Positions 19,646-24,874 are shown, counted from the stretch's first letter. The stretch: 64,000 nucleotides of DNA from Escherichia coli (GCF_048403405.1 NZ_CP183129.1); one strand, 5' to 3'. Notes: generated from the letters alone by a model not told the origin. A program made the numbers and translations.

Positions 19646-22600
19646 TTACCACTGAATACCGGCACCGAGTGCGGCGGAGTATTCACCCTGGCTATTGGTA
19701 CTACCTTGTAATTTGTAGACCCAACGACCATTGGCGCTCACCATCGACACACCTAAAGCAACAGCCGATTCACCGTTGTAAGTACCGCCACCAATAGAGG
19801 CCATACTGGCACCTGGAGTGTAAGCCTGCGGCAGACCGGTCATTGCCATTGCAGAAGCGATACCACCGCTCAACTTGCTTTCGGTTTTGGACAGTTTGTT
19901 ATCCATCTCAACCATCCGCTGATCGGTGTATTGCTTCGTTTCCTGCACGCTTTGCTTCAACTGCGCATAGTTCACTGCGTCGTTGTTGTTCACGCCAGCG
20001 GAGACGTTGCTGATGCGAGTCGTACCGCCATTACCACCACCGAGAGTGATGTTGCTGTAGTCTATAGAACCATCAGCTTTGGTGTCGTAACGAACGCCGC
20101 CTGCCTCAGAAGACTTCAGCTGCGAAACGTTAACCGCATCGGTGGCATTAACACCTGCAGCAACGTTGGTGATACGACGCTGGTTGGTAGAAGAACCCAC
20201 AGAGATGGTGTTTTCTTCGTTGGCCACGGAACCGGTACCCAGCGCGACGCTGTTGTCAGCGGCAGCAATGGAACCAGAACCAATTGCAACACTGTCTTTA
20301 CCCTGCGCGTTGGCATCTACGCCATCGGTGTTGGTCTTGAAGTATTTGGTGCTACCGGTGGTTACGATATCGCCAATGCCGTTTTCGATATTGGTAACGC
20401 GAGTATCCAGATTCGTCACCTGATTGTTCAGGTTAGTAATGCTCTGGGTATTCTGGGAAACCTGCGCGTCCGTTACTTTCAACTGACCCACGTTAACCGC
20501 ATCGGTATCAGCCGAACCAGCCGCGACGTTGGTGATCTGACGTTGACCGTCTTCACTGCCGACAGAGAACTCACCCACAGAGTTCTGTGGTGCGTCCATG
20601 TTGTAGGCGGTGTAGCCAGTTTGAGCACCACGAGTCGTCTGTGAGCCATTACCCATAGCAATGCTGTTTGCATGGTTTGCACGCGCGTTGCTACCGATAG
20701 CAATGCCATTAAGTGCATTCGCGTCCACGTAGGCACCATAACCGATACCAATACCCGCATTACCATTAACGATAGTTTTCGCGCCCATTGCTAGCGAGTC
20801 TTCACCTACTGCCAGTGAATCTTCTTCCGTTGAGTTGGCGTGGAAGTATTTGGTCGGCGTGGTAGCGACTGCACCAATGGCATTTTGCAACTGGCGAACC
20901 GTAACGGCGTCATGGGCTTCGGAACCATCGGCTACGTTGATGATTTGACGATATTTACCGTCATCACCAATAGACAACGCACCAAGTAGTTCGCCATCCG
21001 TGGTGTCATAACCAATCACAACACCTTCTTCCGACACGCTGGTGTCACGAGAACCTTTAACTATTACACGGCTGGAAACGGAACTGCTACCCAGGGCAAT
21101 ACCGGTATCAACGGTGCTGCTGCTACCTTGACCAATGGCTACGCTGCTTTCGCCTGAGGCGACAGCGTTATAACCCACAGCCGTAGCGCCAATACCTGAA
21201 GCGCTGGCATCGTTGAACGCTAAGCCGTTGTCGTTGGTACGTACATAGTTAATGCCCGCACCGTTATCTTCGATGTAGGTTTCGCTGGTGTTACCGGCAA
21301 GCTGATTGATGATTTCGCTGTTCTGCTGGATCAGCATATTGGTGTTAAACAGCTGAGAACCGTTGATGGCGTCAGTGCTGCCTTCGCCAATGTTACCATC
21401 AGCAACGTTTGTGATGATGCTGGCCTTGCCATCATGGCTGGCGTTGTAGGCACCTGCGCCGTCATTGGCCGTTGCATCCCACAGCAGAGCGTTATCGTCG
21501 AGCGCATCCAGGGCGTCACCGACGTTGTTGTACTCGGCATTTGCAATGGTGTAACTCGGCGCAGTAATAGAACCATCAGCGTTGACTTCTGCGTCACCAC
21601 CCAGCGCATCAGCGATGTACTTGTTGGTGGTATACAGTTGTGAGCCGTTAATAGCATCGCTGCTGGTGGAGGAAATTGCACCGTCTGCGACGTTAGTAAT
21701 GACGCTGGCCGTTTTATCTACTCCGCGACCGGCGCTAAATGCACCATTACCATCATTGGCTGTGGCATCCCACAGCAGGGCGTCATCCAGCGTGGTATCG
21801 ATCGCTTCCAGCGCGTCACCGACGTTGCTGTAACTGCCACCAGCGATGGCATAAGTCGGTGCGGTGATTGTGCCGTCAGCATTGACTTCTGCGTTACCAC
21901 CCAGAGTATCGGCAATGTACTTGCTGGTGTCATAGAGCTGTGAGCCGTTAATAGCGTCGCTGCTGGTAGAGGAAATTGCACCGTCTGCAACATTAGTAAT
22001 GATGCTGGCCGTGTTATCTGTCCCGCGACCGGCGCTAAACGCACCGTCACCGCCCTTGGCGGTCGCATCCCAGAGTAGGGCATCACCCAGTGATGTGCTA
22101 AATGACGTGTTAATGGCAGCCAGAGCATCACCGACGTTATTGTAGTCAGTACCACCAATAGTGTAGGTTGGCCCGGTTAATACACCCGCATCGCTGATAT
22201 CAGCACCACCGCCAAGGTATGACGTAAATGAATCAGCTAAGCCATAAAGTTGTGAGCCATTAATGGCGTCAGTGCTGTCAGAGGATACAGTGCCTGCCAG
22301 TAAGTTGGTGATTTTGCTGGTGGCATCGGTACCGTGCGCGGCACTGAATGCCCCCGCAGTAGCGTTCCACAGCAGAGAGTCATCACCGAGACTGTCAACA
22401 GCGTCAGTCAGGTTGGTGATGTTAGTGGTGTTCGTGGCGATATTGGTGGTGTTGGCTGCCACGGCATCGTTAGTGGTTTTGAGCTGAGAGCCGTTAACCG
22501 CGTCAGTGCTGCCAGCCGTCAGGTCACCGTCTTTGACGTTAGTGATTTTGCTGGTGGCATCAGTACCGTGTGCGGCGCTGAATGCTCCCGCAGTAGCGTT

Positions 22601-24874
22601 CCACAGCAGAGAGTCATCACCGAGACTGTCAACAGCGTCAGTCAGGTTGGTGATGTTGGTGGTGTTCGTGGCGATATTGGTGGTGTTGGCTGCCACGGCA
22701 TCGTTAGTGGTTTTGAGCTGAGAGCCGTTAACCGCGTCAGTGCTGCCAGCCGTCAGGTCACCGTCTTTGACGTTAGTGATTTTGCTGGTGGCTTCGGTAC
22801 CGTGCGCGGCACTGAATGCCCCCGCCGTAGCGTTCCACAGCAGAGAGTCATCACCGAGACTGTCAACAGCGTCAGTCAGGTTGGTGATGTTAGTGGTGTT
22901 CGTGGCGATATTGGTGGTGTTGGCTGCCACGGCATCGTTAGTGGTTTTGAGCTGAGAGCCGTTAACCGCGTCGGTGCTGCCAGCCGTCAGGTCACCGTCT
23001 TTGACGTTGGTGATTTTGCTGGTGGCATCAGTACCGTGCGCGGCACTGAACGCGGTGCCATTCCACAGCAGGGCATCGTCTTTAAGGTCGCCAACGGAAT
23101 CCGTCAGGTTGGTGATGTTGGTGGTGTTGGTTGCCACATTATCGTTAGTAGTTTTGAGCTGAGAGCCGTTAACCGCGTCGGTGCTGCCAGCCGTCAGGTC
23201 ACCGTCTTTGACGTTGGTGATTTTGCTGGTGGCTTCGGTGCCGTGCGCGGCGCTGAACGCGGTGCCATTCCACAGCAGGGCATCGTCTTTAAGGTCGCCA
23301 ACGGAATCCGTCAGGGTATTGATACTGTTAGTGTTGGTGGTGATATTGGCAGTATTGGTCGCTACGTTATCGTTGGTGGTTTTCAGCTGAGAACCGTTAA
23401 CCGCATCCTTACTGGTATCAGAAATAGCGCCGTCTTTAACGTTGGTGATGGTACTGGTAGTATCTGTACCATGTGCCGCACTATATGCCTTTTTAAGGGA
23501 GTCCCATTGTAACGTATTATTGTCCAGGCCCGTTAAGGCGTCGCCAACAGTGCCGAAAATACCACTTTTCAGCCTGTAATTTGGGGAAGTAACGACGCCT
23601 TGCGCATTGACGGTAGCCCCCCCACCAAGATTGTCCGCTACTGACTTACTGATAGCATAAAGCTGTGATCCATTGATGGCATCAGTACTGGTAGTGCTGA
23701 TATCACCTGCTGCCATATTGACAATTTGTCGCTGAGCTGTTGTGTTACCCACAGAAACAGTATCCGCGTCAGTCGCTACAGAACCAGCACCCAGAGCAAC
23801 TGAATTTTTCCCCTGAGCACTGGCTTGAGCACCAATTGCAGTGCCATTTTCTAAACCGGCATAACTGCCTTGTCCAAGAGCAATAGCATTTACACCACCT
23901 GTAATACTACCATTACCCAGCGCGATAGCATTTGCGCCGTCAGCTTTATTCCCTTGACCGATGGCAATTGCGCCAGCCGCTACTGCCTGACTTTGATTGC
24001 CCAGAGCAATCGTGTTGTCGACATCTGCAATACTGCCGGAGCCCAACGCGATACTATTAAGTCCATTTGCCTCCGCGTTAGTACCAACTGCCGTCGCATT
24101 TTCAGCAGCTTTGCTCTCTGCACCCATAGCAATCGCGTTTGCGGCGCTGGCGGCGGATTGTCTGCCGAATGCGAGGCTGTCTACGCCAGCTGCAGCACTG
24201 TTGCGGCCTACTGCAATCGCGTTAGCTGCAGATGCGGCGCTACTTGCACCCAGCGCCATTGCATATTCTTTCGACGCATTAGCCGTGGCTCCGAGGGCGA
24301 TACTCATAATTCCTAAGGCCTTGCTTTCACGTCCAAATGCGATGGCGTCATCAGCACCAGTCTCTGCGTGATCCCCTTGTGCAATAGAAAATTCACCTAC
24401 TGAGTTCGCATAACGACCAAGTGCGATTGAAAATCCACCCGTTGACGTTGCCGATGCACCTATAGCGAGGCTTCGCTCACCTGCTGAGGTAGTGTTAATC
24501 CCTAACGCCACTGATGCTTCGCCAAGCGAATGGGTCTTAGCACCGAGGGCTGTTGACCACCTTCCGTCAGCAGTTGAGTGATAACCTACTGCGGTGCTGG
24601 AGCCACCCCCGGTGTCTGTAAAACTATTTGCTTTTGCATCTTCACCGATAGCAACCCAGCCTGTTCCTGTTCCCTGGCCATAATTGACGCCCTGACCGTT
24701 GTCCCTTCCTGCCTGAGCCTGTACCCCAAACGACGACAACATTCCCCCAGCAACCAGGGCAGAAATTAACAGCTTACTGCGCCCGGATTTCTTGCCACGG
24801 CTTTTTGCCGTTTCGCTGGCAACGCTGTAACTGCCCGTCGCTGGATTCCAGATAACTTTAAAAATTTTGTTCAT
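19646..24874 (-). CDS. upaG: Trimeric autotransporter adhesin, UpaG/EhaG (YadA-like) type
   Basis: 1742 aa; extended signal peptide [21 protein letters not shown]; Ala/Gly/Ser/Thr/Asn-rich passenger with repeated head/neck-like units; YadA-like C-terminal anchor ending ...[11 protein letters not shown]. Confidence 0.85.
21600..23420. repeat. In-frame tandem repeats inside the autotransporter passenger
   Basis: Near-identical units of 234 bp (78 aa), about 5 copies from ~22270-23400, plus ~300-bp related units at ~21600-22260; these produce the nearly identical antisense ORFs at 22506, 22740, 22974 and 23181. Confidence 0.85.

Follow-up and report, generated by a model that had tools for sequence, protein, structure and literature searches.

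A stretch of 64,000 nucleotides (nt) from Escherichia coli (GCF_048403405.1, NZ_CP183129.1; hereafter the window) carries, at 19646-24874 on the minus strand, a gene for a trimeric autotransporter adhesin (TAA) of the UpaG/EhaG/SadA family with 1742 amino acids. The middle of this gene is built of repeated units. These units are whole stalk domains, they recur in frame, their number and the number of coiled-coil heptads within them differ between strains, and they resemble each other more closely within a lineage than between lineages. We consider it very probable that this region is the modular middle stalk of the adhesin, and that gain and loss of modules in frame, through misalignment of the repeats, alter the length of the fiber.

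The repeat array and its modules

The high-identity core of the array lies at 22304-23050, where Tandem Repeats Finder (TRF) reported a period of 234 bp with 3.2 copies and 96% matches (score 1417). TRF also detected a 207-bp period at 22903-23315 (2.0 copies, 94% matches) and a 300-bp period at 21498-22090 (2.0 copies, 81% matches). A separate repeat search found five copies at spacings of 234, 234, 207 and 228 bp, as well as a 94-nt core that occurs eight times from 21340 to 23467. We then compared the region with itself at fixed lags, in the spirit of the self dot-plot that a first-pass annotation of the window, made from the sequence alone, had proposed. The self-match was 0.967 at lag 234 (22304-23050), 0.886 at lag 207 (22886-23320) and 0.756 at lag 300 (21530-22120), while no lag exceeded 0.354 in 200 triplet shuffles. 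The periodicity is thus real and far above chance.

To delimit the units, we phased them on the protein, each beginning 14 residues ahead of an LLW or LQW motif, which gave nine modules, U1 to U9, covering 21239-23554 on the minus strand. U1 (23321-23554; amino acids 441-518, 78 amino acids) is a divergent short module with LQW in place of LLW, and shares 72-74% DNA identity with U2-U5. U2 (23114-23320; amino acids 519-587, 69 amino acids, 207 bp) lacks one heptad and a two-residue insert in the DALL loop, and is 94% identical to U3 and 84-85% identical to U4 and U5. U3 (22886-23113; amino acids 588-663, 76 amino acids, 228 bp) is 89% identical to U4 and U5. These two modules, U4 (22652-22885; amino acids 664-741) and U5 (22418-22651; amino acids 742-819), both comprise 78 amino acids and 234 bp, and are 97% identical in DNA and 99% in protein.

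Towards the C-terminus the modules become longer. U6 (22121-22417; amino acids 820-918, 99 amino acids) is a hybrid, in which ~38 U5-like residues precede a different neck and an FGG-type insert; its DNA identity to U4 and U5 is 83%. U7 (21821-22120; amino acids 919-1018, 100 amino acids) is a long DALL-neck-FGG module, 79% identical to the long module U8 (21530-21820; amino acids 1019-1115, 97 amino acids). U9 (21239-21529; amino acids 1116-1212, 97 amino acids), located by the motif scan, is the last DALL-neck module and leads into the non-repetitive C-terminal stalk. The other pairs of long units share 66-72% DNA identity, and the remaining module pairs mostly about 66-75%. All unit lengths (207, 228, 234, 291, 297 and 300 bp) are divisible by three, and the units follow the frame of the minus-strand gene.

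The first-pass annotation had described this array as perfect in-frame tandem repeats at 21600-23420, with about five nearly identical 234-bp units and related units of ~300 bp. The units are indeed repeated in frame, but they are not perfect, since even the best pair, U4/U5, reaches only 97% and the longest exact repeated run, shared by these two modules, is 134 bp. Nor are there five nearly identical units: the set at 96-97% identity comprises no more than U4, U5 and the opening ~114 nt of U6, and U3, U2 and U1 (~72% to U4/U5, although 234 bp long) stand apart from it. Three long units of 291-300 bp were found to be 70-79% alike, and the repeated region extends beyond the proposed limits on both sides.

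To assign the units to domains, we used the DALL-neck module rule of the daTAA dictionary, applied by motif scan and alignment rather than through the daTAA server; in this dictionary DALL, HANS and neck are connector domains, and FGG is a coiled-coil variant (PMC2373917). All nine LLW/LQW (DALL) motifs have a neck 38-46 residues downstream, of the form ...ITNV.DG....STDA[VI]NGSQL. The modules, including the hybrid U6, align to the SadA fragments 2yo2 (E = 2e-20), 2ynz and 3zmf, which contain a matching segment, ...DALLW...AFSA.H....KITN.AAG...STDAVNGSQ, and the long units align also to the FGG-type insert, LGGGA...G.ItaPtY.i......NVG.AL. Judged by these motifs and alignments, U1-U9 are DALL-neck stalk modules, short (69-78 amino acids) or long (97-100 amino acids). 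The modules are joined by a polar-core coiled coil with heptads of the IxxNTxx type, whose DNA period is the 21 bp that TRF detected as a micro-repeat of one heptad in the short modules (22414-22453, 22648-22687 and 22882-22921). The difference between U2 (69 amino acids) and U3 (76 amino acids) is exactly one heptad, and that between U3 and U4 (78 amino acids) is two residues in the DALL loop. A Pfam match to Hormone_6 at amino acids 536-581 (24.8 bits against a cut-off of 25, with no stretch passing alone) was dismissed as a compositional artefact of the repeat.

The rest of the protein has the organization of a TAA. Pfam identified an N-terminal extended signal peptide (ESPR, PF13018; amino acids 1-48, 57.3 bits against a cut-off of 25), YadA_head repeats (159 bits), YadA_stalk over 14 stretches (437 bits) and a C-terminal YadA_anchor (PF03895; amino acids 1682-1742, 68.4 bits against a cut-off of 22.7), and 14 neck-like motifs were found by motif scan. 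The best matches among solved structures are chains fused to GCN4 that carry the label "putative inner membrane protein" (2yo0, E = 2.6e-135; 2yo3, 2ynz and 2yo2), which we take to be fragments of Salmonella SadA. Structures of Hia, YadA, UspA1 and AtaA likewise match the protein, those of the Hia and YadA anchors matching its anchor region. These domains, together with the alignment to SadA, bear out the placing of the repeats in an adhesin passenger by the first-pass annotation. RefSeq lists the product as a "YadA-like family protein" (WP_114281918.1), and the search of NCBIfam returned generic TAA models only, all far below their cut-offs, and hence no specific name. The protein shows every feature of a type Vc TAA that can be tested in a sequence, and, by homology to the trimeric SadA and UpaG, it is expected to form an obligate homotrimer at the cell surface.

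The whole gene is 100% identical to that of E. coli GN02461, a blood isolate (NZ_CP095533.1), where RefSeq places it next to lldP on one side and, on the other, to a gene for a DUF3251/SadB-family lipoprotein, yibL and the mtl operon. Its location between lldP and yibL/mtlR holds, by RefSeq context, in GN02461, in 22 further alleles from complete genomes and in one draft locus (L025). This lldP/sadB-like/yibL locus is the site of UpaG, EhaG and SadA, which have been described as positional orthologs (PMC7247748).

In the window, the sadB-like gene for an inner-membrane lipoprotein lies upstream of the adhesin gene at 24918-25601 on the same minus strand, separated from it by 43 bp. It returned no Pfam match, and its identity came from a PDB sequence search, in which it matched chain 4c47_A ("inner membrane lipoprotein", E = 1.5e-70). 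We presume 4C47 to be Salmonella SadB. RefSeq labels the gene either "DUF3251 domain-containing" or "SadB/YajI family lipoprotein". In GN02461 it is annotated with 657 bp (218 amino acids), against 684 bp (227 amino acids) from the first ATG; the latter is the annotated length in most other strains, and the difference is probably a mere choice of start codon. SadB helps the surface display of SadA, and a sadBA operon has been described (PMC11054257).

Locus, sadB partner and a C-terminal part of 530 amino acids that is 96% identical to UpaG and 94% identical to EhaG place the adhesin, on sequence grounds, in the UpaG/EhaG/SadA positional group. It is neither CFT073 UpaG nor O157 EhaG in the strict sense, as its head is only 55% identical to the former and 60% to the latter. 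The signal peptide and head (amino acids 1-440, window 23555-24874) form the most divergent part of the gene. At the protein level, the head shares 55-65% identity with its counterparts of the UpaG, EhaG, B-strain and ST131 types, but 48% with that of the ST540 type. This divergence, next to the 94-96% identity of the C-terminal part, reveals the gene as a mosaic whose locus harbors no fewer than three or four types of head.

Variation in module number among strains

We fetched 23 alleles from complete genomes, 22 of which are intact. The products of the intact alleles range from 1447 to 1821 amino acids and contain 5-10 DALL motifs. After U1, alleles of the window lineage have four or five short modules, and those of the CFT073-UpaG lineage two to five (one in MS20677), whereas EhaG-type alleles (Sakai, B strain) have no short-module array. 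In A1_136, S1bESBLb and an ST38 isolate (1821 amino acids), the gene is 98.8% identical to that of the window, with a single 237-bp gap that corresponds to one extra 234-bp module and a 3-bp indel in U6. TUM1886 (1751 amino acids) is 99.7% identical and free of mismatches within the array, but carries an additional 234-bp unit and is devoid of the 207-bp unit.

Variation occurs also at the scale of the heptad. The array of strain 98224 differs from that of the window by indels of 21 bp (one heptad) and 6 bp, and heptad-sized differences separate units of 69 from 76 and of 71 from 78 amino acids. The short-module series in the CFT073-UpaG lineage are 76-78, 76-78-78-78, 76-78-78-78-71 and 76-78-78-71-71 amino acids. 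In MS20677 (L011), the first short module of a 1531-amino-acid allele has 111 amino acids, with about five extra heptads of the IATNT type in its coiled coil. The number of heptads therefore varies, as does the number of modules.

Variation in module number was also seen in a search of public data with the protein. Among the best 120 relatives, 111 were full length (1721-1987 amino acids) and had five, six, seven or eight short-module necks, the window allele having five; as the search ranks by bit score and thus favors alleles with more repeats, these counts do not reflect frequencies in the population. At least seven pairs of proteins differ by exactly 69, 78 or 156 amino acids, corresponding to one or two modules, with zero other amino-acid differences. 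One such protein (P0061, 1820 amino acids) is the window protein with one additional 78-amino-acid module. Its coding contig, of 87 kb, belongs to GCA_048551575.1, presumably a draft assembled from short reads (locus L025); there the gene is nucleotide-identical to that of the window apart from an exact 234-bp insertion. The flanks, 6 kb on each side, are 100% and 99.98% identical, with one single-nucleotide polymorphism (SNP) in the 17 kb compared. The extra unit can be placed anywhere over 239 nt, in the interval 22586-22825, which overlaps the exact 134-bp tract of U4 and U5. Together with A1_136 and its relatives, TUM1886 and the protein pairs, this locus substantiates the stalk-length variation between strains that the first-pass annotation had predicted.

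A difference of one exact unit between essentially identical flanks is also the pattern left by a miscounted tandem repeat, and repeats of the Bartonella adhesin BadA were overlooked by earlier sequencing (PMC8859334). The first-pass annotation had cautioned that the copy number in the window might be under-represented through collapse during assembly, and an over-count in a relative is the converse of this concern. We regard such an artefact as very improbable. Six independent complete genomes contain the array region of 2701 bp in identical form, the exact 1742-amino-acid protein is encoded on 51 contigs, the longest of 5.47 Mb, and the units carry distinguishing SNPs, so we take the copy number in the window as real; the extra unit of L025 leaves a small doubt that one of the two assemblies miscounted. 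Nor does the variation depend on the L025 pair, as unit counts also differ between complete genomes (L006/L018/L019 vs L001 vs L023) and between proteins from Mb-scale contigs (e.g. P0021, P0044 and P0060).

All indels observed (3, 6, 21, 207, 234 and 237 bp) are multiples of three, and the open reading frame (ORF) is open in every variant except the frameshifted allele of JNEC-KY204. The variation is thus one of length and not of on/off switching. We accordingly rejected a phase-variable contingency locus, in which a simple-sequence repeat would switch the gene on and off, as no frame-shifting change of the repeats was found.

In JNEC-KY204 (L014, 2501-5718) the frameshifted adhesin gene spans 3218 bp. 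In N66 and MS8345, which have the 1583-amino-acid adhesin allele, the upstream sadB-like gene is interrupted by a stop codon (L012, 8796-9479, and L021, 7269-7952, respectively). From these sequences, the adhesin/sadB system seems to be decaying in some lineages.

Probable origin of the unit differences and their likely effect on the fiber

Short modules share 90-94% DNA identity within the window lineage, but only about 84% with their counterparts in the CFT073-UpaG lineage. Lineage-specific variants recur in several units of the same allele, such as WNDAAKAF in three ECONIH1 units or AVNGLGDD...TAGNLTAG in UpaG-type units. Within the window allele, U4 and U5 differ at 7 of 234 nt; six of these differences are synonymous and one is non-synonymous, and six of the seven fall in one patch of 12 codons. 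Two versions of this patch, GTE and GTD, each linked to four silent changes, are spread mosaically over U2-U6. The patch is located at window 22560-22600 and 22790-22830 and at equivalent spots in U2, U3 and U6, where U6 has a recombinant of both versions. The mosaic distribution suggests short-patch conversion between units. Overall, the pattern of the units is that expected from duplication and deletion combined with patchy conversion, under purifying selection in the sense frame.

Several observations nevertheless weigh against gain and loss of units by simple misalignment. The best 60 array matches in complete genomes vary only by 0, +3, +9, +21 and +27 bp in total length (28 have the length of the window array and 24 fall in the +27-bp class of TUM1886), and the array is stable within clones. 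The 3% divergence of U4 and U5 exceeds that of the flanks of close alleles, which indicates that the standing copies are not very recent duplicates. Some of the clean one-unit differences come from draft assemblies, in which units may be miscounted. Finally, we rejected a derivation of the difference between GN02461 and TUM1886 from one homologous deletion and one duplication, as no more than 2 nt of homology are present at the junction of the 207-bp gap; histories are therefore more complex than single slippage steps. It is more likely that both alleles descend from a form with six modules, for example the common allele of 1820/1821 amino acids. The term hot spot, used in the first-pass annotation, is appropriate on a population time-scale.

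The near-constant length of these arrays and the divergence of U4 and U5 would also be expected if the architecture were static, with old duplications kept for structural reasons and strain differences arising mostly from the import of divergent whole alleles by inter-strain recombination, a process to which the mosaic of head and C-terminal part would conform. Imported alleles, though, would carry substitutions along, while the protein pairs show zero differences beyond one or two whole modules, the window and L025 genes are otherwise identical in nucleotide sequence, and TUM1886 combines two unit-level changes with no substitutions in the array. Lineage-specific variants common to the units of an allele, as in three units of ECONIH1, likewise speak against a static array. 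We therefore judge this explanation unlikely.

Module gain and loss by repeat misalignment could proceed as follows. Each repeat encodes a self-contained module of the fiber, consisting of a coiled coil, a DALL connector, a neck and a further coiled coil, to which the long units add the FGG-type insert. As the units are made of whole codons, and changes in the coiled coil of whole heptads, neither the reading frame nor the coiled-coil register is disturbed when a unit (207-234 bp) or a heptad (21 bp) is gained or lost, and the only effect would be a longer or shorter fiber. Direct repeats in E. coli are unstable through replication slippage, which is independent of RecA, or through unequal sister-chromatid exchange, which depends on it. 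The near-identical direct repeats of the array, with exact tracts of 60-134 bp, may misalign during replication or sister-chromatid exchange and so generate alleles with different numbers of modules, and patchy conversion between units would keep them alike within a lineage. Scaled from SadA, of which 1461 amino acids have been modelled as 108 nm (PMC11054257), a module of 78 amino acids would add roughly 5-6 nm to the fiber.

The selective benefit of such changes is speculative and could lie in reach beyond lipopolysaccharide (LPS) or capsule, in avidity, or in antigenic change. LPS and fimbriae have been reported to mask SadA (PMC7247748), which makes the reach of the fiber a plausible target of selection. 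Going further, the array might act as a within-clone, in-frame length switch, in which single 234-bp units are gained or lost between near-isogenic isolates, such as the window strain and that of L025, and tune the projection of the head relative to O-antigen or capsule when the bacteria colonize or infect a host. We put this forward only tentatively, and consider it rather unlikely.

Alternatively, the repeats could serve chiefly as repeated ligand-binding motifs, so that their copy number would tune avidity rather than length. Fibronectin, laminin and collagen are ligands of UpaG and EhaG (PMC6555100), and fibronectin binding by repeated motifs of the BadA stalk has been reported (PMC9602544). 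DALL and neck are, on the other hand, connector domains in daTAA and not binding heads (PMC2373917), and this role appears distinctly unlikely to be the main one; it would be compatible with the same mechanism at the DNA level.

The array is also open in the opposite direction. As the first-pass annotation had noted, near-identical antisense ORFs exist on the plus strand at 22506, 22740, 22974 and 23181 (71, 71, 62 and 69 amino acids, with GTG starts), next to an ORF of 392 amino acids at 22334-23512. Although they are open and repeated, the probability that they are real genes is practically negligible. They are near-identical because they are antisense to repeats, a mechanical image of the repeated sense frame, in which all domain matches lie and in which the U4/U5 differences are 6:1 synonymous. 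No Pfam family reached its cut-off for these ORFs, and RefSeq annotates nothing on them. We accordingly list them as by-products of the repeats.

Other loci of the window and comparison with known systems

Two further features of the window lie apart from the adhesin locus. Between yibF and yibH (window ~33093-38593; NZ_CP095533.1 102538-108038), a polymorphic toxin/immunity cassette comprises, in this order, genes for an RHS element core protein, a small hypothetical protein and an immunity protein of the Imm57 family. The transposase gene of IS1397, an insertion sequence of the IS3 family, with a programmed frameshift, is inserted between aldB and a small hypothetical gene that adjoins yiaW (window 45991-47339; record 93792-95140).

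UpaG-type adhesins are candidates for vaccines and surface display, and strain differences in module number and head type bear on antigen design and on typing of the gene by polymerase chain reaction or short reads. The E. coli gene family has already been characterized in structure and function, and the one modestly useful product of the present analysis is a catalogue of E. coli module series and of clean one-module allele pairs.

Among the closest known systems is UpaG (uropathogenic E. coli CFT073, 1778 amino acids; SCU-112, annotated upaG in RefSeq, was used here as its representative), which shares the locus and overall architecture and, as in the window, has short DALL-neck modules (71-78 amino acids) followed by three modules of 96-99 amino acids. 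Besides the differences in the head, its short modules are about 70% identical to those of the window (84% at the DNA level), and its module series is 76, 78, 78, 71, 71, compared with 69, 76, 78, 78 in the window. RefSeq does not give the name UpaG to the window protein. EhaG of enterohemorrhagic E. coli (Sakai ECs_4480, 1588 amino acids; B-strain type, 1616 amino acids) is a positional ortholog with the same set of TAA domains (PMC7247748), but it lacks the tandem short-module array, its five DALL motifs being spaced by 94, 262, 96 and 96 amino acids, and its types have heads that are 60-65% identical to that of the window.

SadA of Salmonella enterica (1461 amino acids; 2YO0-2YO3, 2YNY, 2YNZ and 3ZMF) is likewise a positional ortholog with an upstream sadB, and the modules of the window align to its FGG, DALL and neck fragments. 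It belongs to a different species, forms a shorter fiber and is reported to be highly conserved within S. enterica (PMC7247748), whereas alleles of the E. coli gene show wide differences in length and in the type of head; the same study reported "Extensive sequence variation" of upaG.

BadA of Bartonella henselae is a TAA with tandem neck/stalk domains of 68-147 amino acids, whose number ranges from 18 to 34 among isolates; this variation has been attributed to recombination or slipped-strand mispairing, and the repeats were miscounted before long reads became available (PMC8859334). It differs from the window adhesin in its size of about 3000-4000 amino acids, its other domain types and its flanking pseudogene donors, and homology is limited to generic TAA domains. 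Repeat modules have also been documented for BatA of Brucella (PMC7688925). Both the gene family and variable-number stalk repeats are thus already known, and the array described here is a case of ordinary adhesin length variation.

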